Below, in pieces: positions 9,523-29,495 of a stretch of 30,210 nucleotides of DNA. This DNA comes from an uncultured Lachnospiraceae bacterium. GTDB taxonomy: Bacteria; Bacillota; Clostridia; Lachnospirales; Lachnospiraceae. The first letter of the stretch is position 1, and the number at the start of each line of letters is the position of its first letter. The notes below the pieces were generated by a model. It had not been told where the DNA came from, ran no database searches, and worked only from the letters and a program-made list of their open reading frames with translations. The position numbers and the translations under genes were made by a program. Location: contig CAZDAT010000001.1 in the NCBI GenBank assembly GCA_964503695.1, forward strand, positions 1-30,210, written 5' to 3'.

Positions 9523-9581
9523 CTGTCTTCTCCCTTTTCTCATTATAATTTTCAACTCATTTCCTAAATCTCTGATACCAC

Positions 9582-9626
9582 AAAAATAGGAAAGGCTGCC
9601 GCACCAATTCCCCAAGTGCGACAGCC
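9582..9626 (-). terminator. Terminator after the large hydrolase gene
   Basis: 11-bp stem GGCTGCCGCAC (9594-9604) / GTGCGACAGCC (9616-9626), followed by TTTCCTATTTT on the minus strand. Confidence 0.65.
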
Positions 9627-9653
9627 CAATTATACATGAACCTAATCCTTTTT

Positions 9654-14009: not shown

Positions 14010-14053
14010 TTGTATCTTTCCTCTTCTTTCTATGTTAAAGTAGGTAATTGCAA

Positions 14054-14082
14054 ATCTTATTTTGTAATTATGAGTCTCGCAA
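14054..14082 (-). promoter_or_regulatory. Possible SigA promoter of the large hydrolase
   Basis: TTGCGA (14082-14077), N17, TAAGAT (14059-14054). Confidence 0.45.
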
Positions 14083-14102
14083 TTATTCAGTTCTTCTATA
14101 TG

Positions 14103-14315
14103 TTATACATTTTTACATAATCTACGAAAAATAGTATAATACGAATTTATCCCTACTTCAACATAATTTTCGCATAAATTTACTACCAATTCAATGGCAG
14201 ATTTTGGGGAAAGATGATTTATTGCTTCACGGTAGTTTGACAGTTGAATCTGAAACACACGCATGATTTCTTCCTCTGCATTTTTCAGATTTAAGTTGAT
14301 TGCCTGCATTTTCAA
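14103..14315 (-). other. Short ORF of unknown nature, possibly a gene fragment
   Basis: 70 codons, TTG or ATG (14309) start, no convincing RBS, no recognisable motif. Confidence 0.3.
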
Positions 14316-14349
14316 TCAATGCCCCAACTCTTCCCCTTACTCCTGCATC

Positions 14350-14453
14350 CGGATAAGCCATAAGCATACCTGCTGTTCCAACCAGTCCAAGCATCATGAC
14401 CATAATTCCTGTTCCAAGTACCTGTAAGTAAATGTCTGCTGATTTATTTCCAT
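14350..14453 (-). pseudogene. Deleted/frameshifted small membrane protein gene
   Basis: GAAGGTG then ATG 14453 gives MEINQQTFTYRY, and this frame stops after 19 aa (TGA 14394-14396). A TM-like stretch QVLGTGIMVMMLGLVGTAGMLMAYP continues in another frame from the same point. Confidence 0.5.
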
Positions 14454-14467
14454 ACTGCCTGCACCTT

Positions 14468-14683
14468 CTATTTTTCCTGTGAAAGTCTTTTTTTCGCTTC
14501 TTCCACGCTTTCCCCTTCTTTTGCAAAAAGTTTTTCTACACATTTATCCGTTACTTTTGAAAAACCATCCACAGCTCCCTTTTCAATTTTCTTATATCCG
14601 TCTACAACGCCATCCTCGATTTTTTTGTATCCGTTTACAACTGCCTCCGCAATTTTTTCATTTACATCTGCTAATTTTGCCAT
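14468..14683 (-). CDS. 71-aa hypothetical protein with 11-aa amphipathic repeats
   Basis: AAAGGAG RBS; VVNGYKKIEDG/VVDGYKKIEKG/AVDGFSKVTDK. Resembles a small Clostridia protein family (from memory). Confidence 0.8.
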   Translation of the reverse strand: MAKLADVNEKIAEAVVNGYKKIEDGVVDGYKKIEKGAVDGFSKVTDKCVEKLFAKEGESVEEAKKRLSQEK

Positions 14684-14842
14684 TTCTGATATCTCCTTTT
14701 TGATTTTTGTTTATACACTCACTATACAAACCTGTTGTTTCCGTTTTTTTCAAATTATGTTTCTGTTTTGTTAAAGTTACTTTTTCACCCGATAATCATT
14801 AAATAATGTTATATGCCAGTTTTTTTCGTTGAAAAAAGACGT

Positions 14843-14914
14843 TCCATATCATCAGGCATTATAAAAACAAATCAGAAACGATGGGAAATTGAAGAATGCT
14901 TCAAAAACCAAAAA
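14843..14914 (+). mobile_element. Transposase remnant, IS1634/IS4-like
   Basis: IIKTNQKRWEIEECFKNQK matches the (Y/N)xxRWxIEExFRxxK catalytic-Glu helix of IS4/IS1634 DDE transposases. Only ~24 codons are recognisable; no ends found. Confidence 0.55.
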
Positions 14915-15006
14915 CAGAATATCATCCACTGTCTTCACCAATATATGTGCCAGTATACTCTTTTGTCCCAGCAGACGTTTTGCACTAATATCATATTAAC
15001 ATAATG

Positions 15007-15043
15007 AAAAAGGCATTGGCTTCTCATAACCAATACCCCTTTT
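15007..15043 (-). terminator. Terminator of the GH20-ABC-DUF4127 operon
   Basis: Minus strand GGTATTGG-loop-CCAATGCC followed by TTTTT. Confidence 0.6.
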
Positions 15044-15106
15044 CATTCACATTCTCATCTATTCATTTTTACCTGCAATCATCTTTAATTATTTTTCTCA
15101 AAATAT

Positions 15107-16606
15107 CTACAATTCCTTCACTCCAACTTCCAGATTTATCTCAAACATCCTGCTCCATGGCATGGTAACTTTTTTTATCCAAATCCTGTCTGCAATGGAA
15201 GAAAGATTTTCTTTTATAAATTGATTCAACTCTCCGGCTACCATCTGTGCCACACTTCCCGATGGTTCTTTTACATCAAAATAATTCATGGAAGCCGGAA
15301 GTTTTTCTGACACGTCTTTACGTACAACGGCACAATAACCTACATCTTCCACATATCTTTCTGCCAGAAACTTCAAATTTTTCTCTTTCCTGCCAAAAAG
15401 ATAACTGTTTATCCCTTCCGCAATTGCCGTGCCAAGGGTATTTGCAGATGTATTCCATCCTGCGTAACCATCCACCGCAAATAATAAATGATTATTATTT
15501 AAGATTTTAATAATCCCTAAATCACCGCCATTTGCATAAGCATTATCAGCAATTGTTACAATCATCTTCTGCTTTATACAGTATTTCAAAAGACTTGTCA
15601 TATCTGCAAGATTTCTCTCCACACAATATTCCAGCTTTTCCGAAGGCTGCGTCATTGCCTCTTCCATGGCATCCGCAGGTGCGGTCAAAAATAACACAAT
15701 ATCTGCATTTTCATAGCTTTCAGTCAGTAAGCCGCCGGCGGATAAAATATGATATTTCACTGTCGTGGAAAGAGTACATCCTTCATACAATGGAATCATG
15801 TTTTTTGACATTTCCGATACATATTTTACATAAAACTTCGGTCTTTTACCTGCCAGATAATTTAGCATTCTTGATAACAGGGTAAGTTCTACTTCATCTG
15901 CCCCCGGATACATTAACACCTTATCTTCCATATTATATTCGTTTATTTTTTCACGAATCACTTTCTGGTCCAATGCCGCATAACCATATTTTGACGAATC
16001 ATCCTGGGGAATCACCAGAGCATCTATCAGACCTTCCTTTGCAAGCTGAATGGTTTCCACATTCATATAACGGTTGATTTCTCTTCTTGAAATATAATCA
16101 TCCAGATATTCCGGTTTTACTTTTTCCATTGCTTTTTTCACAGGAACATCCCCTTCAATTCCAAGCCTGCTCAAATGAACCGCAACTCCTAATTCATGAA
16201 TTTCTTTTCCACAGATTCCATAATAATCCGGTTCTTCATCATCACTGGAATATTCCGGACATCTCATAATTACATGAAACGCATAGATAACAAGATGCTT
16301 ATTTTTTTCCCTGATTTCCCTCAATAACTGAATCTTTTGTAATAAGGTCTCTTTCGACAGATGATGAAGCCTTGAGGGAACAAGCCCCCCATATAAAAGC
16401 ATATCCATGGAAATTACCAGACCATCTGCATCCACACAGGCATCCCGCAGAAAATCCGCAATTTCATCATAAGAAGCCGGTGTTTTTTTGTTACCCAGTT
16501 TTTCCGGTCTTACAATATTTAAATCATCATGGCAAAATAATTTTTTAGGAAATTCATAATTACAGGGTCTCTCATCCAATGGTAATAATACAATTTTTTT
16601 CTTCAA
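15107..16606 (-). CDS. DUF4127 family protein
   Basis: KIVLLPLDERPCN, SMDMLLYGGLVPSR, DDSSKYG, YPGADE, GWNTSANTLG. Start revised to TTG 16606 (AGAGGA RBS, 4 nt after the upstream stop). Confidence 0.85.
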   Translation of the reverse strand: MKKKIVLLPLDERPCNYEFPKKLFCHDDLNIVRPEKLGNKKTPASYDEIADFLRDACVDADGLVISMDMLLYGGLVPSRLHHLSKETLLQKIQLLREIREKNKHLVIYAFHVIMRCPEYSSDDEEPDYYGICGKEIHELGVAVHLSRLGIEGDVPVKKAMEKVKPEYLDDYISRREINRYMNVETIQLAKEGLIDALVIPQDDSSKYGYAALDQKVIREKINEYNMEDKVLMYPGADEVELTLLSRMLNYLAGKRPKFYVKYVSEMSKNMIPLYEGCTLSTTVKYHILSAGGLLTESYENADIVLFLTAPADAMEEAMTQPSEKLEYCVERNLADMTSLLKYCIKQKMIVTIADNAYANGGDLGIIKILNNNHLLFAVDGYAGWNTSANTLGTAIAEGINSYLFGRKEKNLKFLAERYVEDVGYCAVVRKDVSEKLPASMNYFDVKEPSGSVAQMVAGELNQFIKENLSSIADRIWIKKVTMPWSRMFEINLEVGVKEL

Positions 16607-16610
16607 TGCT

Positions 16611-18761
16611 TTATCCTCTTTTTTCCTTCCAATCTTTATAAGCTGCAAGATATGTTCGTTTTGCTTCTAATCCAAACTGACCATAAAAGTCCTTCAAAAT
16701 TGTCCAGTCAACATTCACACGCACAGCACCATTTTTTTTCAACTGCCGAAGCGACTGATTCAACAGATAATCACCCACATGGCCGCCCCTTATCTTTTTT
16801 GCTATTCCTATGGGTCCTAAACCTCCATTACCATTCGCATCTACAGAAATCATGCAATAGCCTGCAATTTCTGTCTTATCTTTTTTCCATAAAATCACAA
16901 TATTTTCTGAATTATCTATCTCCCGGATTTTTTCCTTCGCTTCGTATTCCCATCTGCCCGGAAATTCTTCCTTCAAAAACCTGAGAAGCTTCTCTTTGTC
17001 CTTTTTATAAGTATCAGTTACATAATACTCTTCAAATGGATTTAAGTCAAAATTATCAATAGCTTCATTTCCTGTAAGTTCTGCCTCTAAATCATAATGC
17101 GGTTCGAAATTTAATTTAAATCCGCATTCCCCAAAAAATCTTTCTTTATTTTTATCAGGCTCCGGAATCCCCGAGAAAAAATTATGAAAATCCTGCCCTG
17201 CATAAATCTTTTTAATTCCACGTTTTTTTAAAGACTGGCAGGTATGATTTAAAAGCATTCTTCCATAGCCTTTTTTCTGCTCTTTTTGGTCAATCGCCAA
17301 AATACTAATCCATGCCGTATCAAGGTATAACTGTTCATTATGTGAAATCTTGACCCCGATAAATCCCAGTATCTCCTTTGTCTGTTCATCTACTATTTTT
17401 CGACTCTCCACACTGCAAAAATCTGCATCTTCAAAAAGATTTTTATAAATACGTTCTTTTGTTACCGTATAACTTTTATCAAACACACCTGCACATATAT
17501 CCGCAATTTTATCAATATCCTTCTTTTCCAACGGCTCGAGACTAACTTTTTTCATAAATTTCCACCAGTCATATTTATGAATATAAGATAAATCAAATAT
17601 CATACAGCCTCCGGTAGTCTGAAAGCAGACAGACATTGCTTCCTGTAATCTTTCCGGACACTCCCTATACTGTTCAATAAAAAGGCTTCCCGTCATTCCT
17701 TTTTTATTACAGGTTATCTTAGAGGCCATTTCGTAAGCTCCTTCCACAGTATACCAGGGTGCCGGAAGGTCTTTTTCTTCGGCTTCTGTAATCCAGACAT
17801 CACTGTAATAAAATCCTGACAATAACCTGTCCGGTATATCCCCATAGGCTGTTTCTTTCAGCTTTTTGGCATCACACCAGAAAAATTCATGACTCTGGTA
17901 TTTACTTCCTGCCCAGTTTGCACCGACCAAATGATACAGCGGGTACCATGAACCGGTATAATTACAAAATTCCACATCCGGGAAATCTGTTTTTAACATC
18001 CTGCTTACTTCTTCCACAAAGCTTTTGATAATTTTTGCCCGGTATTCGAAAAAGCTTCCATAGTATTTTCCCGGTTCTTCCTTAACTCCTTTACCGGTCT
18101 CTTTCAGCCGGTATATATCCTCAGGCCAGTTTTCATCATAAATATTTGTATACTTTTCCCAGTCTTTTCTTGTGTATTCACTAAAATCCGTTGATAATCC
18201 GACATATCTTACCCTGTCAAGTACAATGCCGTCTGGATGATAATTTTCACAAAATTCCCCGAGAAGGTTTAATTCATACTGACGAACCTCCTCTTTTCCG
18301 GGATTTACAAAAATCTCACCAAAATCATCTATAGAGCCTGCCGTCTTAAGTCCGAAGCTTTCCGTACTTTTTCGAATTACTGCGTTTCCATTTTTATCAA
18401 GTCCATAAACCTCACATTCCCATCCTGGTGTAAATCCTTTCATGAAAGGATGTTTCTTTTTTTTATTTCCTTCTGTAAAAACATCAAACGCAGCATAACA
18501 TTTCATTCCCAGTGACCGGATAATCCCAAAACACTGTTTTACATAATCTGTTTCCGGCTTAAAATCAGCATCATAGAAAGAATAATGCTTCGCAAAGCTA
18601 CTTTTATATATGACAAAACCGCTGGTATCTTTTACACTTAAGATAATACCTGTCATTCCTGCTTCTTTGCATTTTTCCATTGAATCCCGAAATGCTTTTT
18701 CATCCAGAATTATTTTTTTATTTGCCGAAATCTCAACCCATACTTCATAAATCTGTTCCAT
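16611..18761 (-). CDS. Fusion of a glycoside hydrolase-like TIM barrel (GHL10/DUF187-like) with tandem GNAT acetyltransferase domains
   Basis: N-terminal ~400 aa: LSVKDTSG, FVNPGKEEV, HPDGIVLDRVRY. C-terminal ~310 aa: EQKKGYGRMLL, GQDFHNFFSGIP, EFPGRW, GGLGPIGIAKKIRGGHVG, DWTILKDFYGQFG. One uninterrupted frame, no signal peptide. Confidence 0.8.
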   Translation of the reverse strand: MEQIYEVWVEISANKKIILDEKAFRDSMEKCKEAGMTGIILSVKDTSGFVIYKSSFAKHYSFYDADFKPETDYVKQCFGIIRSLGMKCYAAFDVFTEGNKKKKHPFMKGFTPGWECEVYGLDKNGNAVIRKSTESFGLKTAGSIDDFGEIFVNPGKEEVRQYELNLLGEFCENYHPDGIVLDRVRYVGLSTDFSEYTRKDWEKYTNIYDENWPEDIYRLKETGKGVKEEPGKYYGSFFEYRAKIIKSFVEEVSRMLKTDFPDVEFCNYTGSWYPLYHLVGANWAGSKYQSHEFFWCDAKKLKETAYGDIPDRLLSGFYYSDVWITEAEEKDLPAPWYTVEGAYEMASKITCNKKGMTGSLFIEQYRECPERLQEAMSVCFQTTGGCMIFDLSYIHKYDWWKFMKKVSLEPLEKKDIDKIADICAGVFDKSYTVTKERIYKNLFEDADFCSVESRKIVDEQTKEILGFIGVKISHNEQLYLDTAWISILAIDQKEQKKGYGRMLLNHTCQSLKKRGIKKIYAGQDFHNFFSGIPEPDKNKERFFGECGFKLNFEPHYDLEAELTGNEAIDNFDLNPFEEYYVTDTYKKDKEKLLRFLKEEFPGRWEYEAKEKIREIDNSENIVILWKKDKTEIAGYCMISVDANGNGGLGPIGIAKKIRGGHVGDYLLNQSLRQLKKNGAVRVNVDWTILKDFYGQFGLEAKRTYLAAYKDWKEKRG

Positions 18762-18765
18762 ATGT

Positions 18766-19605
18766 CTACCCTTTTACAGCACCACTTACTGCTTCTATAT
18801 AATTTCTTTGGAAAACCATAAATACCAGCAATACCGGAACGATGGAAATAATCGTACCTGCTGCCACATAACCGAATTTATAACTAAAGGAACCATTCAA
18901 ATACTGTAAAGCCGTAGCCAGCGGATATTTTTCCGGATCCTGCAGCACGATAATAGGCCACAAAAATGCATTCCAGTTTGCAATAAAATCAAATATCACA
19001 ATTGTTGAAATACTTGGAAGAATCCCCGGAAGCATTACATGTCTCCAGATTTTTAACTCCCCTGCCCCGTCAAGTTTTGCAGCCTCGATTAATTCCTTTG
19101 GTATTCCAAGATAAGCCTGCCGCAATAAAATAATACTAAATGTTTTCACCGAAGACGGAAGAATCACTCCTGCCATGGTATTTAACAAATGTAATTTTGA
19201 AATTGTAAGATAGTTAATAATCATTCCTGCTGCTGCCGGAATAATCATGGTTCCTATTAAAATGGTAAATATCACATTTTTCCCTTTAAATTCCATGGTA
19301 GCCAGAGGATAGGCACATAAGGAAGAAAAGATAATATCAATTATAATTCCGCCAAATGTAATAATAACCGTATTTCCTATATACTTAGGGATATTCATAT
19401 ATTCGACAACGCCTGTATAATTGGCAATCGAAAAATCACTTAATTTAAAATCCAGACTATAAATATTAGCACCCGTTCTGAAGGAAGATAACAAAAGCCA
19501 GATAAAAGGACCTGCACAAATAAGTGCAATAAGAATCAATAATAAATATGTAAAAATATATTCGATTACTTTTTTCTTCTTTTTCTTTGTCATTGTTTTA
19601 TTCAT
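18766..19605 (-). CDS. Carbohydrate ABC transporter permease (CUT1, MalG-like)
   Basis: Six TM segments; EAA loop IPKELIEAAKLDGAG; WNAFLWP. Confidence 0.95.
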   Translation of the reverse strand: MNKTMTKKKKKKVIEYIFTYLLLILIALICAGPFIWLLLSSFRTGANIYSLDFKLSDFSIANYTGVVEYMNIPKYIGNTVIITFGGIIIDIIFSSLCAYPLATMEFKGKNVIFTILIGTMIIPAAAGMIINYLTISKLHLLNTMAGVILPSSVKTFSIILLRQAYLGIPKELIEAAKLDGAGELKIWRHVMLPGILPSISTIVIFDFIANWNAFLWPIIVLQDPEKYPLATALQYLNGSFSYKFGYVAAGTIISIVPVLLVFMVFQRNYIEAVSGAVKG

Positions 19606-20494
19606 TATTTGTCATTCCTCCTTTCTTGCCATAAACAAACACTACAATACTAAGCAATGTAGTAACCGCAGCCTGTACCGCTCCAATGGCCGCTGCATAT
19701 CCGAACTGAAAATCCTGAAATGCCTTTGTGTAAGAATAATAATTAATTACCATTGTTGCATCGTTTGGTCCGCCCTTTGTCAGTACAAATACCACATCAA
19801 ACACTCCGATTGCGGAAATCACGGAATTTAAAGAGCAAAACCAGATATAGGGCTTTAACATCGGCAATTTAATTCTTGTAAATACTTTAACGGCATTTGC
19901 CCCATCAATGGTTGCCGCTTCACAAAGCTCTTTCGGAATCCCCTGTAAGCCTGCCAGATACATCATCATATAATATCCCAGTCCCTGCCAGACAGTAATA
20001 AACATCAGACAAAGCATGGCAGTTTCTTTATCGCTTAAAAATCCCAGCGGCATGGATATCAGTCCCCATTCTTTTAATGCCGTATTTATCAGACCATTTG
20101 AATTAAAAATGAATCCCCAGATAATGGAAACTGCAACCATGGAAGTAACAACCGGTATATAAAACAGGGTACGGAAAAATCCGATTCCTGGTATTTTCTT
20201 ATTTACTAAAACTGCCAGAAGAATAGATAATATCTGAATCACCGGAACAACAATTACAAATATGACTGAATTTTTTATTGAAATCAGAAACACTCTGTCA
20301 TTAAATGCTTTTACAAAGTTACGAAAACCAACAAATTTTGTCTCCCCAAGTACAGAATAATCATAAAACATCAGTATCAGACTTCCAACAATAGGTATAA
20401 TTGTAAATAACAAAATTATAAAAAGTGCCGGAGCCATAAAACCATATGCTTTTATGGTCTGTCTTTTTTTCATTTTTGAAATCTTTTCTCCCAT
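19598..20494 (-). CDS. Carbohydrate ABC transporter permease (CUT1, MalF-like)
   Basis: YLAGLQGIPKELCEAATIDGA; TKGGP; 8-nt overlap with the next permease. Confidence 0.95.
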   Translation of the reverse strand: MGEKISKMKKRQTIKAYGFMAPALFIILLFTIIPIVGSLILMFYDYSVLGETKFVGFRNFVKAFNDRVFLISIKNSVIFVIVVPVIQILSILLAVLVNKKIPGIGFFRTLFYIPVVTSMVAVSIIWGFIFNSNGLINTALKEWGLISMPLGFLSDKETAMLCLMFITVWQGLGYYMMMYLAGLQGIPKELCEAATIDGANAVKVFTRIKLPMLKPYIWFCSLNSVISAIGVFDVVFVLTKGGPNDATMVINYYSYTKAFQDFQFGYAAAIGAVQAAVTTLLSIVVFVYGKKGGMTNNE

Positions 20495-20508
20495 AGTATC
20501 CTCCTGTA

Positions 20509-20545
20509 TTAAACTGTCCCAGAAAAAACTTCCGGGACAGTTTAA
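20509..20545. other. Perfect 12-bp intergenic hairpin downstream of the binding-protein gene
   Basis: TTAAACTGTCCC-N13-GGGACAGTTTAA; likely mRNA stabiliser or partial terminator. Confidence 0.7.
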
Positions 20546-20548
20546 CTA

Positions 20549-21856
20549 TTAATTAATTTCTGCAAGAATTGCATTTACATCCGCTTCTGCCTGGGCTAAA
20601 GATGCTTTAATGTCCTCCCCATTTGTAATAGCTGCTTCATATGCTTTATCCACTGCTGTCTGAATATTTGTCTGATCCGCGATTCCTAAAGAGAAATCCT
20701 TTGAAGTTTTACTTGCTTTTGCAGACATTGCACTTGCCTGACCTTCCAAGGTTTCTGTATCAGAAGTAAAATATTCATCTTCACTGGCTGCCTTTGTGGA
20801 TGGGAAGATGGAAACTTCCTTACAAAATGCCAACTGGTTTGCATCATTTGTTACATAATGGGCAAAGTTAATGGCAGCTTCATGATTTTTACTTGCTTTT
20901 GGAACTACAAGGTTCATTAACGGGTTTCTGGACAATCCATTTTTTCCTGTTAAAGGTGTAGATATACCAATGTTTTCATAAATATCGGGTGCTTCATCTT
21001 TGATTCTGGATAAAGAAGAACCTGAGGAGCTTATGATTCCCAACTGACCGGATTCAAATAATTTTAACATTTCATCCCATTTTCCCCAGTTCGTTTTTAA
21101 AATAACACCTTTATCTGTGCATTCTTTGTATTTTGCCAGTAAATCTGCTGTTTCTTCGGTATTAAATGCAGCCGCTGTCTTATCTTCTGTCAATACATCA
21201 ATATTTTCTTCAAATAAAATGTTGAAAAATTCATCCGGCATAAATAAATATGCTCCTGTTTTATTATAAAATTCTTCAGCCATTTCCAGTGCTTCATCAA
21301 AAGTAGCCGGAACTTCCATTCCTGCTTTTTCAAATAAAGCTTCATTATAGAACATGATATCCGGTGATGCATACCATGGGAAAGCATACACGGAATCCCC
21401 GATTTGTGCAGATTCCCACAAATCTTCAATATAAATGGATTTCTGTTCTTCTGTAGCTTCTTCATTTAAATCCACTAATGCTCCCTGTCCTGCAAGTGTT
21501 AATGCAAACTGGGTATTTAAGTTTACAACATCCGGTGCTGTTCCCCCGGCAACTGATGTGACTAATTTTGACTGGATATCTGCATAAGGAACATCTGTCC
21601 AGTTAATTTTTACACCCGGATTTTGTGCTTCATAATTTGCAATCATTTCATTGAAAAAGTCCCCAAATGCTGCTTTCAGGTCAATGGTCCAAAACTCTAC
21701 CGTAACCTCTTGTCCGCTAACCGCTTCCGAATCGGTATTTACTCCGTTATCTGCCGATTCCACTTCCCCATTTCCTGCATCATTACCGCCACATCCTATC
21801 AGCATTGCTGCTGCCATGGAAATGCATAATAACACACTTAACATTTTCTTTCTCAT
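20549..21856 (-). CDS. Sugar ABC transporter substrate-binding lipoprotein
   Basis: MRKKMLSVLLCISMAAAMLIGC lipobox; AGGTAPDVV; YAFPWY; GGAGG-type RBS. Confidence 0.95.
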   Translation of the reverse strand: MRKKMLSVLLCISMAAAMLIGCGGNDAGNGEVESADNGVNTDSEAVSGQEVTVEFWTIDLKAAFGDFFNEMIANYEAQNPGVKINWTDVPYADIQSKLVTSVAGGTAPDVVNLNTQFALTLAGQGALVDLNEEATEEQKSIYIEDLWESAQIGDSVYAFPWYASPDIMFYNEALFEKAGMEVPATFDEALEMAEEFYNKTGAYLFMPDEFFNILFEENIDVLTEDKTAAAFNTEETADLLAKYKECTDKGVILKTNWGKWDEMLKLFESGQLGIISSSGSSLSRIKDEAPDIYENIGISTPLTGKNGLSRNPLMNLVVPKASKNHEAAINFAHYVTNDANQLAFCKEVSIFPSTKAASEDEYFTSDTETLEGQASAMSAKASKTSKDFSLGIADQTNIQTAVDKAYEAAITNGEDIKASLAQAEADVNAILAEIN

Positions 21857-21921
21857 AGTTTTTTGTCCTCCTTAGTCCTTAAGTTTTGTAATTTATATAA
21901 ACCTTCTGGTTTATAACTGTT

Positions 21922-23808
21922 TCAGCCGATAACCGCAGGTGTTGCAATATCTGACCACAAATTATAATTCAGCTCTTCAATCTGGTTCTTTTCAAAATAA
22001 CCAAATGATTGATATTCTTCCTCTAATTCCTCAATCACCGGTATCCTGCCTTCCACAAACTCTTCCAGCTGTTTTGCAGTATCCGACAGTCGCCGTTCCA
22101 GACCTCCTATCCGAAGGGTCTGTACTTCAAACCCAAATGCTTTATTTTCCAGTCTCCACTGTCTTTGAAAGGCTTCATAAAAGGCGTTCAAATCTCTTCT
22201 AAGTACCGGAATTTCTTCTTTTGCAATACGCGAAAGCTCTTCTTTATCCCCTTTCTCATATGCCTCACGTATTCTGATTCCCAAATCCGCTTTCTGTTTT
22301 AATACGATACACAGCTTATGCATGGTTTCAAAAATATAAGAAAACCTTCCCTGTCCGGAAATCTTTTCCATCATTTTTTCTGCCTCTGCAAACTTTTTTG
22401 CCGTATCTTTTTTTACCACAGAATCAAATGTTCCAATCAGCGGGTCATTATAAAGCAGATATTTGCTACAATTATTATGAATTTTATCATTTTCCGAATA
22501 TGGATTTACCAAATCTATCCTGCAAAATTCCTCAAATCCATAACCTGTCAGCTTTTCAAATGCCAGTTCCTCCATACGGCTTTCATATGCCAGCTTTGCA
22601 TCCTTAAAAATTGTCGGAAGCACCGAAAAACTGCTTGTTTCTGCTCCATTATCTCCCCAGCAGGTAATGGTATAAGAATCAATACCATGTTTTTTGCAGG
22701 CTGCAATGGATGCTTTTCCTATCTGTATGCTGTATCCGTTATGTGGTACAAAACCTGTCCATTTCCAGGCTCCTGTTGCAAAACCTATGTCATTACTTAT
22801 TTTCTTTTGTTTTACAATATTTTCACTGTAGTGTTCTTCACTGGTAGAGTAATAGTCCCAGTAAACAGGCTGTAAATCTTTTGGAATTACAAAATCCAAA
22901 TCATTGTTATCCAGCATATGTACAAACATATCGCTCCACATTTGTGGTCTCAGATTGTATTTTCGGCATATTTTTAAAACACATTCCAGATGTTTTGTCA
23001 TAATCCTGCTTTTTTTATGGAATCCATTTTTCGTAAGATATTTTCCGGAGCCTAAAAGCTCTGCCTCATCCATCCCTATATTAATCCGGTCGGTAGAAAA
23101 ACATTCCGAAACTTTTTTAATCAGATGTTCTAAAAACTGCTCTGTTCGTTCTTCGCCCACAAGCAGAATATCTTTTGCATCAATGATTTCGCTATAAGTT
23201 TCATAACGTGTAATCTGATTTAAATGGGCAAGTGTCTGTATGTAGGGTCTTAGTTCCATATCAAATATCTTCGCATATGCATCTAACGTTTTGATTTCTT
23301 TTTGTGTCAGCCTTCCCCGCATATACCCAAAATAAGGCTCTTCTTCCACTGCAAAAGTATCTTCCATGTAAAGCCCTACATAATGAAATCCCATGCACGC
23401 AGCATAACAAATCATCTGCTTAATTTTTTCCGGCTTCATAACTGCATTTCTTGATAAATCCAGCATGATTCCAAAATCACAAAATATACATTTTTCAGAA
23501 ACTTCCGTTTCTATTTCTTTGCTGTTTCCTGATAAAAACAGCAGTGCCCGACACATATCCAGGATTTTGCCGTATTCTACAACCAAAGCTTCCCTGTGCT
23601 TTTTAATCCGATAACCTGATTCTGCCGTATTTTTTAAGATGACTTTCTGAATCCTTCCTGTTTTCCGGCTTTCTTCCAATGAATTTAATGCCATCTTTTC
23701 CCATTTTTTATCTTCGTTTTGCCATACGTTTAAAATATCCGTATATTTTTTTAATTCTTCAATTACTCTTTCTTCTTTTTTACAAGCTTCCTCAATCGTA
23801 AAAAGCAT
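21922..23808 (-). CDS. GH20 beta-N-acetylhexosaminidase (cytoplasmic, GH20C/HexD-like)
   Basis: MLDLSRN, LYMEDT, PYFGYMRGR, IQTLAHL, catalytic GMDE pair, WSDMF, YWDY, WGDNG; no signal peptide. Confidence 0.92.
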   Translation of the reverse strand: MLFTIEEACKKEERVIEELKKYTDILNVWQNEDKKWEKMALNSLEESRKTGRIQKVILKNTAESGYRIKKHREALVVEYGKILDMCRALLFLSGNSKEIETEVSEKCIFCDFGIMLDLSRNAVMKPEKIKQMICYAACMGFHYVGLYMEDTFAVEEEPYFGYMRGRLTQKEIKTLDAYAKIFDMELRPYIQTLAHLNQITRYETYSEIIDAKDILLVGEERTEQFLEHLIKKVSECFSTDRINIGMDEAELLGSGKYLTKNGFHKKSRIMTKHLECVLKICRKYNLRPQMWSDMFVHMLDNNDLDFVIPKDLQPVYWDYYSTSEEHYSENIVKQKKISNDIGFATGAWKWTGFVPHNGYSIQIGKASIAACKKHGIDSYTITCWGDNGAETSSFSVLPTIFKDAKLAYESRMEELAFEKLTGYGFEEFCRIDLVNPYSENDKIHNNCSKYLLYNDPLIGTFDSVVKKDTAKKFAEAEKMMEKISGQGRFSYIFETMHKLCIVLKQKADLGIRIREAYEKGDKEELSRIAKEEIPVLRRDLNAFYEAFQRQWRLENKAFGFEVQTLRIGGLERRLSDTAKQLEEFVEGRIPVIEELEEEYQSFGYFEKNQIEELNYNLWSDIATPAVIG

Positions 23809-23856
23809 ACTTTTTCTCCATTCTTATAATCTGACCTAATGTTTTAATTTGAGTCC

Positions 23857-24021
23857 GTTTGTTTATTTTACTTTCAAAGAAACATTACCCATAAACCGTA
23901 CGTTTCTTTTTGATGTTCGAATTATAACAACTTCATTCTCCTCATTCAAGCTTTTTGCTCCTTTCAGAAAGTAGAATAAAAAAACATTCTTTTTTCTTTC
24001 TTAGCAGAAACTACTTTCAGT
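23857..24021. promoter_or_regulatory. Three putative RpiR-family operator sites
   Basis: GCAGAAACTACTTTCAGT (24004-24021, near-palindrome), TCAGAAAGTAGAATAAAA (23964-23981, +) and TTTGAAAGTAAAATAAAC (23878-23861, -). Confidence 0.6.
23921..23949 (-). promoter_or_regulatory. SigA promoter of the GH20-ABC operon
   Basis: TTGAAT (23949-23944), N17, TATAAT (23926-23921) with an extended TG. Confidence 0.8.
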
Positions 24022-24081
24022 TATTTTTACTATATATCTATCTTTTTTTCATTTTTCATTATTCATTTTGACCATGAAAAC

Positions 24082-24951
24082 CTAATATGGCATACCTGTT
24101 TCATTTGCAGATGCTACCTCTTCTCCACGAAGAGCTGCCAAAGTTTCTTTATATTTTTTCTCATTATGATAGACATCATTTGCAAAATAATAGGAATATA
24201 AGACATCTATAATAATCAGTATGGGAATCTGTGGTGAAATTTTAGTTCCGGTTTCCAAATTTTTAATATATGCTGTCTTCACCACTTCGTCGCATAATTC
24301 TAAAACATCCATGTTCTCACCGGAAGTAATGTAAATCACCTTTGCTCCTTTTTTCTTGGCAATGCGGATACTGTTATTTATTTCTTTGGTTTTTCCGCTA
24401 ATCGAAAATGCTACAATTACAGAATTTTTTCCTGCAAGGGCTGCACTCATTTGTATCAGATGTACATCTGTTACCGCTTCCACTAAAAGTCCCATGCACA
24501 TAAACCGGAAACAAAATTCCCTGGCAGCAAAGCCTGAGCTTCCAACTCCATAGCATAAAGTTTTTTCTGCCTGCATAAGTATATCCACCACTCTCTGGAT
24601 TTGTTTATCTTTCAAAATCTGAAAGCTTTCCGCCAAAAGCTCTGAATAACTCTGACATACTTTTTGGGTAAGAATGCTGATATCCTTCTTCTGATTTTCT
24701 TTTGGCATTTCACGCTCTAAATCTTTTTCATAAGAAAAAATAAATTCACGATATCCCTTATATCCGCATTTTTTGGAAAATCTCGATAATGCAGCCTCTG
24801 ATACATATAATCGTTTGGAAATATTTTTGGAAGAAAAATCCATTTTTTCTGTATTACTTAGGAAAAAAGAAGCAATACTTCTTTCCACCGGTGTCATTTC
24901 GTTATAAAAACCCGACATATTCTGTTTCGTTTCATTCTGGTAATAGTCCAT
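24082..24951 (-). CDS. MurR/RpiR family transcriptional regulator (HTH + SIS)
   Basis: VSEAALSRFSKKCGYKGY (HTH); YGVGSSG and SISGKTKE (SIS). Start revised to ATG 24951. Confidence 0.93.
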   Translation of the reverse strand: MDYYQNETKQNMSGFYNEMTPVERSIASFFLSNTEKMDFSSKNISKRLYVSEAALSRFSKKCGYKGYREFIFSYEKDLEREMPKENQKKDISILTQKVCQSYSELLAESFQILKDKQIQRVVDILMQAEKTLCYGVGSSGFAAREFCFRFMCMGLLVEAVTDVHLIQMSAALAGKNSVIVAFSISGKTKEINNSIRIAKKKGAKVIYITSGENMDVLELCDEVVKTAYIKNLETGTKISPQIPILIIIDVLYSYYFANDVYHNEKKYKETLAALRGEEVASANETGMPY

Positions 24952-24958
24952 AATCTTC

Positions 24959-25972
24959 TCACTCTTCTTTCCAATCCATAATATCTGCGACCTCACGTAC
25001 AAGAATCTGTGCAATCTTTTTATGTGTCGTAAAAGACGGATGACCTCCGGTTCCCACCCCGTCTTCTTTTTCCATTAACGGCAATTCCACAAAAGAACAC
25101 CTTATTTTATTTTTCTGACATATCTCTGCCATATTTTTAACAGCTTTTGTTAAGGTAGCTTCCATTAAACCGTATAGGATTAAAATATAGGATTTCGGAT
25201 ATTTTTCCGCAATTTTATGAACAAATTCCATGTATTTTCCTGCAAAAGCTTCTTCTTTATTCTTGTCTTTTCTCGTATAACTGGCATCATTTGTTCCAAG
25301 ATTCATGAAAATAATATCCGGTTCATACTCGTTGTCCATGCTTTGTTCTAATACTTCCGGCATCAAAATGTCCGTTAAGGGTTTCTCCTCCTCAGGTGCA
25401 ATATAACGCGATATAATTCCGCCTCCGCTAAAGCAGGCAAACCACGCCTGTGCTCCAAAAGCTTCTGCTGTCAGATACGAATATGTTTTTGTAACATTCT
25501 CTGTGGCAGTCGTAAATATGAAATCCTCTGCCTTTCCCTCCACCCCATATCCGGCTGTCAGAGAATCTCCAATAAAGAGCATTTTGCGTTTTGAATTTTC
25601 TTTTTCTTTTGCAGGTGACATTTTTCCATCTGCATTCAATTCCTTTATTTTTAATTTTCCATACTGTAACTCCGTTAATTTCATAGCCCTGACTGTCACG
25701 TTTTCTTTTTGTCTGCTTTGAAACAATGTATAAACATGGATTCCATTTTCTATCTTAAAAATTTGTTCCGGTATTTTTTCTTCATTTATAAAAACACCCA
25801 GATAAGCTTCCAAATCCTTTTCTGCCTCTCCTTCTATCCTGGCAGTTACCCTGGTAAATTCTCCGCCAAATTCCAGAAATGAGCCAGAGGTTATAAGCTC
25901 TGCTTCACTGTTTATTTCCTTTATTTTTCCAAATTTTTCGATATTTTCATCGTTTATTGTATATCTGTACAT
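24959..25972 (-). CDS. SGNH/GDSL esterase, CE2-like
   Basis: FIGDSLTAGYG, SGGG, NLGTND, GGHP (His with no Asp three residues before it, as in CE2); N-terminal beta domain. Start revised to ATG 25972 (GGGAG RBS). Confidence 0.82.
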   Translation of the reverse strand: MYRYTINDENIEKFGKIKEINSEAELITSGSFLEFGGEFTRVTARIEGEAEKDLEAYLGVFINEEKIPEQIFKIENGIHVYTLFQSRQKENVTVRAMKLTELQYGKLKIKELNADGKMSPAKEKENSKRKMLFIGDSLTAGYGVEGKAEDFIFTTATENVTKTYSYLTAEAFGAQAWFACFSGGGIISRYIAPEEEKPLTDILMPEVLEQSMDNEYEPDIIFMNLGTNDASYTRKDKNKEEAFAGKYMEFVHKIAEKYPKSYILILYGLMEATLTKAVKNMAEICQKNKIRCSFVELPLMEKEDGVGTGGHPSFTTHKKIAQILVREVADIMDWKEE

Positions 25973-25989
25973 ATTATTCTCCCGCTTTA

Positions 25990-26820
25990 TCAAATCTCAA
26001 TTTCCATCCCATCATAAGAAATCATAATTTTGTCATTTTTCATATATTCTACAGCATACGCATAGCCTGCATGACCATTATGCGAAAAATGATTTGCCAC
26101 AAATATGGTATTTTCATCTGCTATATTTTTCTCTAACATTTTTTCCTTAAGCTTTAGGTTCTTTTCAAAATTCATATGCCCGGTATACTGCATTTTTTCA
26201 ACTCCTGAAGTGCAATCCATCGATACCAGTTGAAAATGCATCTGATTTTTTTCCAGATAATCCCAGATTTCTTCTGTAAAAAAATCAGTATCATGAGCAT
26301 AAAGAATTGTCTTGTTTTCTTTTTCTATACTGTAAAAGAGCGGATTTTTGGTTCCATGTACCGCCGGAAATGCCGTAACCTTATACTTTCCAAGTGTTAC
26401 AGGATGATAAGGCTCTATCGTATTAATCTGTACCTCCTTATTATCTCCAATGCTGTTTTCTCCCAGTTCCATTACCATTTTTTTCACATCTTCACTGCCA
26501 TATACATAAAGCGGCTCTGTTCCTTCTTTTAATACTGCATATCCGGCAGTTCTATAGATAAACTGGTCCGGCAAAAGGTGGTCTTCATGTATATGTGTAA
26601 TCAGACAATACTTTAAATCTGTAATGTCCAGCTGATAGGTCAGAGTATGAAAATAAGTATCCGGTCCGAAATCTATCATAATCTCATTATCTATCATTGC
26701 CTGACACCTTGTCCGTATCTCTTTCTTTCCATGTATTCTTGCAAACCTGCAAGTATCACAATGACAAAATAGTGCCGGAATCCCTTCTGCGGCTGCAGTT
26801 CCCAAATATTTAATTTTCAC
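25990..26820 (-). CDS. Metallo-beta-lactamase-fold hydrolase, PhnP-like phosphodiesterase
   Basis: LGTAAAEGIPALFCHCDTC (CxCxxC), THIHEDH (HxHxDH), AVHG, NHFSH. GTG start with GGAGGAG RBS. Confidence 0.85.
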   Translation of the reverse strand: MKIKYLGTAAAEGIPALFCHCDTCRFARIHGKKEIRTRCQAMIDNEIMIDFGPDTYFHTLTYQLDITDLKYCLITHIHEDHLLPDQFIYRTAGYAVLKEGTEPLYVYGSEDVKKMVMELGENSIGDNKEVQINTIEPYHPVTLGKYKVTAFPAVHGTKNPLFYSIEKENKTILYAHDTDFFTEEIWDYLEKNQMHFQLVSMDCTSGVEKMQYTGHMNFEKNLKLKEKMLEKNIADENTIFVANHFSHNGHAGYAYAVEYMKNDKIMISYDGMEIEI

Positions 26821-28036
26821 TTTTTTGCTCCTCCTTTTTACTTCTTTCTATCTGCCAGAAAGCGGCACTGACACCAACTCCCATTAAAATTACCCATATA
26901 AGAATCAGATTTTTCCACCCTGTCCCGGCTACTGTATTTCCCAAAATAATATTAAACACTGATGCTGCCATGTAGCTTACAAAATCCAGATATCCTGTTG
27001 CAGTAGAAACCATTCCCGTATCTTTAAGACTTGGACAATATACAATCCATATTATGGAAGATACGCAATTTGAAGCCATTACTGCAAAAGTAATACATAT
27101 AACATTCCCCAACGGCTGCCTGACAAAATACAAGAGTAAAAATGCCAGCATTGCCGACAGGAAAAAAACAAAGATTGTTCTTTCCATATTCCGCTGCAAA
27201 TAATCAAAAAGCCATACCGCCACAAAAGCTGACATAGAAATACAGATTGTGGACATAGAAAACAAAAAAGAAGAACTCTCTGAAGAAAATCCAAGATATT
27301 GTGAAAAATAAGCAGGCATCCAAAATACCACTGCACTTCTCACAACTCCGGTCAGACCGGTAACTAATGTAAAAAAAAGTATTTTTCGCTTTAAAAGATT
27401 GTAAATGCGGTGCTTTTTTTCCTTCTTTTTCTCTTCTTTTAGTTTCACCCCTTCTTCTTTACCGCCCCATTCAGACATAAAGAAATAGAAAATTATTCCC
27501 ATGAAAATCAGCCAGAAACCGACAATTCCAAAAGAAAGTTTCCAACCACAGATTGCTCCGATTAGTCCGGCTGCCGGTCCTCCAAACAAAGCAAAAACCT
27601 CCAATGCCAGATTACATTTCTGTGCATACACCACACTGGTATTTTCTGCAATACACCTTACCATGGGAGCATACACCATAGACAAGGCAAAGCCCATAAT
27701 ACCATAAATAAGCATTGCCGCAGTCTGATATCCGATAAAAAAGACCATGAAAAGCTTTGCCATTCCGGCTAAAATAAGCCCAGAAGCAACCATATATCTT
27801 TCTTTCATTCGGTCTCCCAGCATTCCGTTAATCAGTTGTCCGACCGCATAAACTATAAAAAAGACAGAAGATAACGCACTAATCTTTTCATTCGTGCTTT
27901 CTCCATTTTCTATCAGTTTAGGAAGGGAAACACTTAAAATATTTTTTGCTATATAAACTGCCAGATATGCGGCTGAACATAAACCGCCTATAAATACAGC
28001 TCTTTTTAAAGCATATTTTTCTTCATTTTCTTTCAT
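26810..28036 (-). CDS. MFS transporter resembling the OPA (GlpT/UhpT) family
   Basis: About 12 TM segments; YAVGQLINGMLGDR; STATGYLDFVSY. Start revised to ATG 28036. The OPA assignment is tentative. Confidence 0.8.
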   Translation of the reverse strand: MKENEEKYALKRAVFIGGLCSAAYLAVYIAKNILSVSLPKLIENGESTNEKISALSSVFFIVYAVGQLINGMLGDRMKERYMVASGLILAGMAKLFMVFFIGYQTAAMLIYGIMGFALSMVYAPMVRCIAENTSVVYAQKCNLALEVFALFGGPAAGLIGAICGWKLSFGIVGFWLIFMGIIFYFFMSEWGGKEEGVKLKEEKKKEKKHRIYNLLKRKILFFTLVTGLTGVVRSAVVFWMPAYFSQYLGFSSESSSFLFSMSTICISMSAFVAVWLFDYLQRNMERTIFVFFLSAMLAFLLLYFVRQPLGNVICITFAVMASNCVSSIIWIVYCPSLKDTGMVSTATGYLDFVSYMAASVFNIILGNTVAGTGWKNLILIWVILMGVGVSAAFWQIERSKKEEQKSEN

Positions 28037-28094
28037 ATTTATCTCACATTTTCTTTCGTAGCTTTTTACATGATTTAGTATCATGCAGGGTTTG

Positions 28095-29495
28095 TTATAT
28101 TTTTTCGATACTTTTTAGCCATCTCTCTGTTTTGAATCTATGATAAAAAATAATGCTCCGAATCAGCCATTCTATTCCTACACTTATCCAAATGCCTTCC
28201 ACACCCAGGTTCGTTTTCATCGTAAGGAAATATCCAAGTCCGACCCGTACAACCCACATAGTAAGTAAGGAAACAAAAGAGGTAAACCGCACATCTCCGG
28301 CTGCATTTAACACACTCGGCAATACGTTGGATGTAACCCATAAAAAAACAATCGGAATACAGGTAATTACAAACAATCGGTAAATTATCGCCATAGTATC
28401 CTGCGGTGCCTGATATAATTTCAATATAAAATCCAGAAACGGAAGAAATAAACCAAAGGAAATTATAATAACTGCTTCTCCAAGCCAAAGCATTTTTCTT
28501 CCATAATCACGTGCCATTTTTTTATCTCCTGCCCCTATACACTGCCCTACAATGGTTACCACTAAATTTGAAACTGCAATTCCGGCAGCATAAAAAACAG
28601 ATATGGCAGAATTAGTCACTGCATTCGCTGCAACACTGGCGGTTCCCAGTTTTACCAAAAACATGGATACCAGGATTCCTCCGCCATTAAAACAAATTTG
28701 TTCCAGTGCAAACGGCGCACTGATATTCACAATTGACTTTAAAATCTTTTTGTTTAAATGAAATGTATCTCTTCCGCAAATTCGCAGTTTACTTCCTTTT
28801 CCATATAAATAGTACACTACAGCGATACTCCCAATACAGCGTGCCAGATTCAGCGACAGAATGGTTCCCATGATATCCAACTGCATAACATTAATAAATA
28901 CAAAACTGGCAATCAAATGTGTTACATTAATCATTACCGATAGCTGTAAGCATACCTTCATCCTGCCGATTCCCCTGAATACCGCAATGCCTCCCATATA
29001 AACAGACAAAAAAATGAAAGAAACGGCATTCCCAGTAAGATACACAACTGCTTTATCCCTCACTTCTTGTTTAGCATCTGCAAACATCCCCTGAATCACC
29101 GGTTCTGCCATGATAATTAAAAAAGCAGAAAATACAACCGCCGTAAGAAATGTAAATATTACTATCTGTTCTGCTGCCTTTTTCATTTTTTCCTGATTTC
29201 CCTGACCCTTATACTGTGCAATCAATACGGTTCCCGCAGAAGAAATCGCACTATAAACTGAATAAATCATAGTACATAATGGTGAAACAAGACTGACTGC
29301 TGAAACAGATTCCTGACTTGACGAGCTAATCATTGCTGTAGTCAGAAGTCCAATGATACTTACAAAAAACTGGTCAAAAATCAGCGGCACAAGCATGGAA
29401 AAAATCTGTTTATAAGAAAAAAAGCTACTGTTAAACCAATGCTCTAAAATGGCAGTTGCATTCTTTTTTGGCGACATTTTCTTTGGCATGTCCAT
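28095..29495 (-). CDS. MATE family transporter
   Basis: VSAVSLV, VLIAQYKG, LGTASVAANA, VGQCIGAG, LGVEGIW; start may be ATG 29489. Confidence 0.92.
   Translation of the reverse strand: MDMPKKMSPKKNATAILEHWFNSSFFSYKQIFSMLVPLIFDQFFVSIIGLLTTAMISSSSQESVSAVSLVSPLCTMIYSVYSAISSAGTVLIAQYKGQGNQEKMKKAAEQIVIFTFLTAVVFSAFLIIMAEPVIQGMFADAKQEVRDKAVVYLTGNAVSFIFLSVYMGGIAVFRGIGRMKVCLQLSVMINVTHLIASFVFINVMQLDIMGTILSLNLARCIGSIAVVYYLYGKGSKLRICGRDTFHLNKKILKSIVNISAPFALEQICFNGGGILVSMFLVKLGTASVAANAVTNSAISVFYAAGIAVSNLVVTIVGQCIGAGDKKMARDYGRKMLWLGEAVIIISFGLFLPFLDFILKLYQAPQDTMAIIYRLFVITCIPIVFLWVTSNVLPSVLNAAGDVRFTSFVSLLTMWVVRVGLGYFLTMKTNLGVEGIWISVGIEWLIRSIIFYHRFKTERWLKSIEKI

Follow-up and report, generated by a model that had tools for sequence, protein, structure and literature searches.

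The stretch analysed here, called the window below, is a whole contig of 30,210 bases (C1) from a 1.86-Mb, 67% complete metagenome-assembled genome of an uncultured Lachnospiraceae bacterium. Scans for open reading frames (ORFs) and domains placed 11 genes between positions 29495 and 15107, and eight of them, ending with the gene of a DUF4127 protein, belong to a conserved operon family. This family is proposed to import O-acetylated oligosaccharides of N-acetylmannosamine (ManNAc), N-acetylglucosamine (GlcNAc) and glucosamine (GlcN) and to break them down in the cytoplasm, the likeliest source being the cell-wall glycopolymers of other bacteria; the copy in the window would be horizontally acquired and cut at its 3' end. 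We regard this reading as probable, though well short of certain. An earlier note, made from the sequence alone, had suggested an undescribed locus of twelve genes for the import and breakdown of amino-sugar glycans; eleven genes were counted, and the locus does appear to be undescribed.

In its general architecture the locus follows a well-known type of Gram-positive operon for glycan utilisation; what is unfamiliar is the set of enzyme families and the substrate. The operon family connects DUF4127, an uncharacterised family with about 2,400 representatives, directly to a ManNAc kinase and epimerase. It provides candidate genes for the missing step of ManNAc release and for the feeding of gut, oral and soil bacteria on bacterial necromass, and it offers three further uncharacterised families, namely DUF4985, the PF12831 oxidoreductase and the PHP partner of DUF4127.

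The conserved gene unit

Eighty DUF4127-encoding loci were taken from one-genome-per-species contigs and searched with the window proteins by tblastn for synteny. Orthologues of ATP-binding cassette (ABC) permease 2 were found in 54 loci, of the RpiR regulator in 43 and of permease 1 in 40, the last reaching 89% identity. The GH20C hexosaminidase and the GHL10/GNAT protein followed with 29 loci each, the substrate-binding protein with 27 and the CE2 esterase with 15. The earlier note had treated all genes as one pathway. In these loci the eight genes recur together, but the multidrug and toxic compound extrusion (MATE) transporter has orthologues in only two of them, and the major facilitator superfamily (MFS) transporter and the metallo-beta-lactamase (MBL)-fold hydrolase in none.

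The order CE2-RpiR-GH20C-binding protein-permease-permease-GHL10/GNAT-DUF4127 was kept in L006, L012, L015, L019, L025, L029, L084 and L087, with several Lachnospiraceae-type loci among the carriers, and the unit was found across many Bacillota. Cultured carriers include Lachnoclostridium phytofermentans, Catonella morbi, Allofournierella massiliensis, Anaerocolumna and Paenibacillus. The recurrence of eight genes in one order is far above chance. In the closest relatives, L084 and L087, DUF4127 is 78-80% identical to that of the window and CE2 stands at the same position, as the first operon gene. The window DNA aligned with L084 at 70% identity from 25822 to 24100 (the CE2 DNA being itself 70% identical) and at 74% identity from 23560 to 15126, and nowhere else. 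Since the order recurs and this alignment covers exactly those genes, the CE2, RpiR, GH20C, binding-protein, two permease, GHL10-DUF4985-GNAT and DUF4127 genes form one conserved unit. The boundary of the locus is therefore corrected to an eight-gene system, present as a 3'-cut copy, and not eleven genes. The common orientation pointed out in the note carries no weight because every gene-like ORF of at least 100 residues on the contig lies on the minus strand and GC skew is negative throughout. The domains named in the note were all located by Pfam and NCBIfam scans, and the unit and its signals are as follows.

24959-25993, minus strand: cytoplasmic esterase with CE2_N and SGNH domains (PF17996, PF13472), GDS motif
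24082-24954, minus strand: RpiR/MurR-family regulator (HTH_6 and SIS, Pfam and NCBIfam)
24006-24019, minus strand: operator-like palindrome TGAAAGTAGTTTCT in the RpiR-GH20C spacer
23921-23949, minus strand: promoter-like site ahead of GH20C with extended -10 (TTGAAT, 17 nt, TATAAT, TG before the -10), from a consensus scan alone
21922-23808, minus strand: GH20C exo-beta-N-acetylhexosaminidase (PF18088, E 1e-55; PF00728, E 6e-7)
20549-21856, minus strand: CUT1 ABC substrate-binding lipoprotein, ChiE-like (SBP_bac_1, SBP_bac_8)
19598-20494, minus strand: ABC permease 1 (PF00528)
18766-19605, minus strand: ABC permease 2 (PF00528)
16611-18761, minus strand: GHL10-DUF4985-2xGNAT fusion of 716 aa (Pfam)
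15107-16606, minus strand: DUF4127 protein of 499 aa (PF13552), last gene of the window copy
15007-15042, minus strand: terminator-like hairpin of 15 pairs, 65 nt after the DUF4127 stop

The ABC import foreseen by the note holds for the binding protein and the two permeases, but the locus contains no ATPase gene; MsmK-like ATPase genes lie outside it, on contigs C9 and C69. The binding protein carries a lipoprotein leader ending in LIGCGG and the enzyme N-termini have no hydrophobic leader when read by eye in the translations, in agreement with the claim that the enzymes are devoid of signal peptides. The nearest solved relative of the binding protein is the ChiE-like MsBP of Synechococcus (6WPM, E 4.4e-42), and a likeness to the ChiEFG-type chitobiose ABC systems of Thermotoga goes with it; those systems have no DUF4127 or NanE context, and the ligands of both comparators are themselves uncertain. 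The lipoprotein and permeases would import the oligosaccharide with a shared ATPase of the MsmK type encoded elsewhere. The CE2 esterase resembles CtCE2 (2WAO, E 1.3e-22), bears the serine motif FIGDSLT and belongs to CE2, a family-level assignment from which it would remove O-acetyl groups.

Homology is strong for the hexosaminidase, which aligned with Paenibacillus sp. TS12 Hex1 (2EPK) at E 4e-124 and with Streptococcus pneumoniae GH20C (5A69) at E 3e-118. It keeps the D-E pair in NIGMDEA, falls in the GH20C subgroup and shares with these enzymes the cytoplasmic GH20C type with the C-terminal domain of the family, a ROK gene adjoining in relatives. It probably takes off terminal beta-linked N-acetylhexosamine. 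The pneumococcal GH20C locus holds mannosidases and a fucosidase for N-glycans, whereas none of these recurs here, where the partners are DUF4127, GHL10 and GNAT.

In the fusion protein, residues 1-405 comprise a putative GHL10 TIM-barrel, glycosidase-like domain and DUF4985, and residues 406-716 a GlmA-like tandem GNAT region. The latter shares its tandem architecture with GlmA of Clostridium acetobutylicum (5KF1, E 1.8e-18), to residues 76-320 of which both GNAT domains were aligned, and contains the acetyl-CoA motif QKKGYG (Q/RxxGxG/A). As the GNAT half is a true homologue of GlmA, the re-acetylation of free amines put forward in the note is reasonable, and this half would N-acetylate free glucosamine residues. 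A GNAT region is also fused to a glycosidase in the fungal GH3 enzyme RmNag (4ZM6), but the partner in the window is GHL10 with DUF4985 and not GH3, and the two halves are separate genes in some relatives (L006). The GHL10 half, which may cut another linkage, was modelled by AlphaFold2 (AF2) with a pLDDT of 93 and an alternating strand-helix pattern. Its Pfam score is marginal (PF02638, 30.5 bits for a cut-off of 27.9), and the best solved relative of the family profile is Cwp19 of Clostridioides difficile (5OQ2, E 8e-9, local alignment). Cwp19 and Escherichia coli DigH share this Pfam family and have the cell-wall glycans of bacteria as their substrates; they are secreted, whereas the window GHL10 is cytoplasmic and joined to DUF4985 and GNAT. 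The action of Cwp19 on cell-wall glycans has been described (PMC6016235, PMC5765458). An article on DogH, a GHL10 protein of Deinococcus, offered no helpful context.

The regulator has the HTH_6 and SIS domains of the RpiR family and resembles MurR. Its likely start is the ATG at 24954 and not the TTG at 25014, the relatives being 283-285 aa long. In the 274-bp spacer between the RpiR and GH20C genes, TGAAAGTAGTTTCT was the best match in a whole-window scan to TGAAAGTASTTTCA, with 1 mismatch. The palindrome TGAAAGTAsTTTCA recurs in L084 and L087, both at the equivalent GH20C site and in front of CE2, and a second element, TTCTACTTTC-n-GAAAG, stands ahead of GH20C (sites L084:2695-2832 and L087:2154-2354). 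The palindrome is likely the RpiR operator. Bound before GH20C, the RpiR protein would act as a repressor that probably senses a sugar phosphate.

DUF4127 and the link to ManNAc

The window DUF4127 protein covers positions 1-489 of the 489 in PF13552 (537.5 bits) and is thus full length; its 499-aa form was confirmed by P0001. The family counts 2364 representatives at 50% identity. When all ORFs of the 80 loci were clustered and the clusters scanned for domains, the frequent neighbours absent from the window were NanE, a ROK kinase, a PF12831 FAD oxidoreductase, a PHP metal hydrolase, NagA and NagB. The loci of other lineages add GH84, large secreted GHL10 proteins, GxDLY-SGNH esterases and NAGPA-type phosphodiester glycosidases. 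NanE, the ManNAc-6-P 2-epimerase, was adjacent or fused to DUF4127 in 42 of the 77 loci with a DUF4127 ORF, ROK was present in 36, and NanE and/or ROK in 50. This strong link fits the ManNAc-containing cell-wall material that the earlier note had named among its substrates. The PHP hydrolase (8 loci) and the PF12831 oxidoreductase (25 loci) are immediate partners of DUF4127 and never occur together; they may be alternative solutions to one step.

Gene fusions put DUF4127 in a tight functional network. Five representatives are DUF4127-ROK fusions, and DUF4127-NanE, NanE-DUF4127, DUF4127-GHL10, DUF4127-PF12831 FAD oxidoreductase, DUF4127-SGNH esterase and DUF4127-alpha/beta hydrolase proteins were also found. 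A minimal cluster in a 6.2-Mb genome consists of RpiR, a binding protein, two permeases, NanE, DUF4127::ROK and the FAD oxidoreductase. In full-length relatives, the ROK kinase and NanE would turn ManNAc into GlcNAc-6-P, and NagA and NagB would finish the pathway. One ORF of the NanA/DHDPS family was seen in the 80 loci, 8.5 kb from DUF4127, and none in the window. An equivalog search for NanA in five carrier genomes gave nothing over the cut-off of a strict model, which among the controls only E. coli passes, so that this test is a weak one. As a NanA-family gene is so rare in the loci, the ManNAc here would not come from sialic acid via the known lyase.

Distant DUF4127 members have signal peptides or a wall-associated domain, and their secretion argues for a chemistry with no need of ATP. 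A kinase role for DUF4127 was rejected, given the secretion of distant members and the recurrent fusions with a ROK kinase. Invariance down to 25% identity was seen for five Asp, two Glu, three Asn and six Arg, and the invariant carboxylates would fit hydrolase or lyase chemistry. The AF2 model (pLDDT 84.7, pTM 0.87) shows Rossmann-like alpha/beta domains. AFDB clusters gave DUF4127 members alone, the protein atlas contained no usable match, and the DUF4127 profile hit PDB sequences with E values of at least 1. A literature search returned no article on DUF4127, on DUF4985 or on N-acetylmannosaminidase and its variants; PF12831 turned up in flavoproteome lists alone, and the search gave nothing on catabolism in ManNAc linkage-unit recycling.

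From the gene neighbourhoods and fusions, we infer that DUF4127 releases ManNAc, or converts a ManNAc derivative, possibly anionic, to ManNAc. More specifically, and only tentatively, it could be the first known ManNAc-releasing enzyme, a beta-N-acetylmannosaminidase or related hydrolase or lyase of new fold, partnered by PHP or FAD enzymes and acting on anionic ManNAc fragments such as those of pyruvylated secondary cell-wall polymers or teichoic-acid linkage units. If true, Bacillota would possess a widespread and hitherto unknown means of salvaging glycopolymers other than peptidoglycan from dead Gram-positive cells.

Bacterial cell-wall glycopolymers contain ManNAc, GlcNAc, GlcN and O-acetyl groups. 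They are the most plausible source of the oligosaccharide because of this content, because the GHL10 enzymes studied act on walls and because wall-less Acholeplasma carry expanded versions of the locus with secreted enzymes. To our knowledge, Gram-positive wall polymers universally contain ManNAc as a building block, from teichoic-acid linkage units and S-layer-anchoring polymers to many capsules.

Two other occurrences in this family were recorded. Of 33 genomes sampled from one family of the same order, 26 encode a distant, secreted paralogue that is DUF4127-like and about 610-640 aa long; it lies in non-sugar surroundings, with no sugar-locus genes alongside (L098:8613-10484, L099:9135-11072). 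In L012, L013, L016 and L036, a recurrent side module lies 3' of DUF4127 and encodes a PF12831-type FAD oxidoreductase, an aminoglycoside-type N-acetyltransferase, a GFO/IDH/MocA oxidoreductase, a xylose-isomerase-like TIM barrel and an ADP-ribosylglycohydrolase. Its gene content recalls the oxidative (3-keto) glycoside-cleavage pathways, and the module may act on aminated sugars.

The shortened copy and competing readings

In the nearest relatives, including those with a DUF4127 of 80-82% identity, the operon continues as DUF4127-PHP-NanE-ROK, an ending that the earlier note had missed along with its absence here. Homology between the window and this full operon does not extend past the DUF4127 stop codon, and a search of 14010-15106 for remnants of PHP, NanE and ROK found none. 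The truncated end is real because an independent Logan assembly from another sample (L102) shows the same end, with 99.2% identity over 20521-14672, including 435 bp past DUF4127. Canonical DUF4127 was not found in 16 genomes of the same genus nor in 33 of the same family, and of 251 genomes from the order about 11 contained it. This patchy distribution speaks for horizontal acquisition, and a horizontally acquired copy shortened at its 3' end is, in our view, the more probable description of the locus. The pathway may be incomplete in the window genome.

Several observations weigh against the proposed import and breakdown of ManNAc-containing oligosaccharides. The copy is without PHP, NanE and ROK, and the rest of the 67%-complete assembly yielded no NanE or PHP. 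The run search found the window sequence in DNA runs only, all of them animal gut metagenomes. The six invariant Arg of DUF4127 suggest an anionic substrate, which a plain ManNAc glycoside would not explain, and its PHP or PF12831 FAD partner has no role in a simple glycosidase model. Compared with the PDB by Foldseek, the DUF4127 model gave TM-scores under 0.2, and a wide search with VIA returned generic Rossmann, SGNH, PBP-like and flavodoxin-like folds, with a best Z of 9.9. Finally, phosphorylated sugars are preferred by MsBP (PMC8938411), to which the binding protein is closest among solved structures.

Among the competing readings, the one that survives best is that the window locus is an incomplete remnant after the loss of PHP, NanE and ROK, with no ManNAc feed, which serves GlcNAc and GlcN release only or is decaying. 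The end of homology at the DUF4127 stop, followed by a terminator, would agree with such a loss, as would the identical end in the independent sample, the failure to find NanE and PHP in the assembly and the lack of DUF4127 in the same-genus and same-family genomes surveyed. However, none of the eight conserved genes is broken or shortened. NagA, NagB and two generic ROK genes (C46, C154) were located elsewhere in the assembly and, at its degree of completeness, NanE and a ManNAc kinase may lie outside it. A remnant is the less probable account of this copy. The chitosan, peptidoglycan-strand, sialic-acid and eleven-gene readings, for their part, each fail to account for the NanE/ROK link or for the co-occurrence data.

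The locus could be a chitin or chitosan oligomer system, with a ChiE-like importer, a GH20 chitobiase, a GlmA re-acetylating GlcN, and DUF4127 and GHL10 as accessory chitosan-active proteins. GlmA was reportedly found to acetylate chitosan oligomers by Reith and Mayer in 2011, and GH20 enzymes cleave chitobiose. The binding protein falls in the ChiE-like group (PMC8938411). Nevertheless, ManNAc is absent from chitin, yet DUF4127 has NanE and ROK as its most frequent partners, sometimes in fused form; no chitinase (GH18/GH19) recurs in the 80 loci and CE2 has no role on chitin. We consider this system unlikely.

An equally doubtful substrate is O-acetylated, partly de-N-acetylated peptidoglycan. 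GHL10 would cut denuded strands, CE2 would be an O-acetyl-peptidoglycan esterase, GlmA would re-acetylate GlcN linked to N-acetylmuramic acid (GlcN-MurNAc) and RpiR would sense MurNAc-6-P. GlmA was reportedly characterised on peptidoglycan-derived GlcN-MurNAc, and the GHL10 protein DigH acts on peptidoglycan. Cwp19, of the same family as DigH, does so too (PMC6016235). The MurR-like regulator points in the same direction, as does a giant gene for a GH73-type glucosaminidase that lies 1.1 kb downstream of DUF4127. But neither a MurQ etherase nor a MurNAc kinase could be recognised as recurrent in the loci, NanE is left unexplained, and the GH73-type gene is a neighbour in none of the 80 loci. 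Moreover, recycling of the own wall cannot be the general role, as the wall-less Acholeplasma carry expanded versions of the locus.

The eleven-gene pathway adds three genes upstream of CE2.

28095-29495, minus strand: MATE efflux transporter (PF01554, E 2.9e-43; TIGR00797, 151.8 bits for a cut-off of 147.4)
26810-28084, minus strand: MFS transporter (PF07690, E 2.2e-29; PgtP subfamily, 87.5 bits for a cut-off of 407)
25990-26820, minus strand: MBL-fold metallohydrolase with HIHEDH motif (PF12706, E 1.3e-15; TIGR03307, 74.2 bits for a cut-off of 272)

In this pathway, CE2 and a PhnP-like hydrolase would strip O-acetyl and phosphodiester groups, phospho-sugars would move through an OPA-like MFS protein and MATE would export by-products. 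From MATE to RpiR, adjoining genes overlap or stand 10 nt apart (10 nt between MATE and MFS, the MBL gene overlapping the MFS stop and the CE2 start), so that they are probably co-transcribed here. The MBL hydrolase could also be a non-orthologous replacement of the PHP metal hydrolase of relatives, NAGPA phosphodiester glycosidases occur in some DUF4127 loci, and the MATE orthologues flank the two loci mentioned above. Against this, MFS and MBL are missing from all the sampled loci, and the only operator match upstream of MATE, with 3 mismatches, is at chance level. The MBL orthologues (54-61% identity) sit in GH38, GH43/rhamnosidase, GH3/CE4 and glycyl-radical enzyme/GH88 loci or beside CRISPR genes, and the MFS genes adjoining some of them are not orthologous to the window MFS. 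The labels "PhnP-like" and "OPA-like" used in the note are weak assignments: the MBL protein is distantly alike to PhnP (3G1P, E 2.2e-8) and scores far under the PhnP equivalog cut-off, and the MFS protein, far under its subfamily cut-off, is recognised by the general MFS_1 model alone. Because these genes are found in 0-2 of the 80 loci and MBL orthologues occupy different sugar loci, MATE, MFS and MBL are additions peculiar to the window genome and stand outside the conserved pathway. The phosphodiester-stripping step of the note depends on them and is consequently unsupported. A single eleven-gene pathway is therefore improbable, slightly more so than the two substrates above.

It is very improbable that the locus is a variant nan-type cluster for sialic acid or host glycans in which DUF4127 replaces the lyase or sialidase: NanE, ROK kinase, RpiR and ABC importer do make up the classic firmicute nan set, and GH20C was first described in a pneumococcal host-glycan locus, but no NanA-family gene is present in 79 of the 80 loci, no sialidase recurs, the carriers include soil Bacillus and Paenibacillus and environmental Acholeplasma, and GHL10, GNAT and the esterases are left over. 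The full-length relatives share with the nan clusters of S. pneumoniae and Clostridium perfringens the NanE, the ROK-type kinase, the RpiR regulator and a binding-protein ABC importer feeding GlcNAc-6-P. They differ by having DUF4127, GH20C, GHL10 and GNAT instead of a NanA lyase or sialidase, and the window, with neither NanA nor NanE nor the kinase, does not hold the canonical NanA, NanE and NanK set.

Neighbouring genes and minor observations

The PhnP/Apyc1-like MBL family (PF12706 with PF23023) occurs in many unrelated sugar loci of gut Clostridia (L088, L090, L091, L095, L096, L097), where it may have an undescribed general role.

A gene-poor gap of 1.1 kb follows the operon and contains a 71-aa ORF at 14468-14683 (minus strand) with three V-[VD]-[ND]-G-[YF]-K-K-I-E-like repeats. 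Beyond it, the GH73-type gene at 9654-14009 (minus strand) codes for a giant protein of 1451 aa with a signal peptide, SH3, a SagB/GH73-like glucosaminidase region and an Ig-like domain, together with Cys/His-rich repeats, an N/G/S/T-rich stalk of about 220 aa and a C-terminal transmembrane helix. SpoIVA and a DUF3048 protein are encoded at 6822-8309 and 8404-9657, both on the minus strand, which indicates that the organism is a spore-forming member of the Clostridia.

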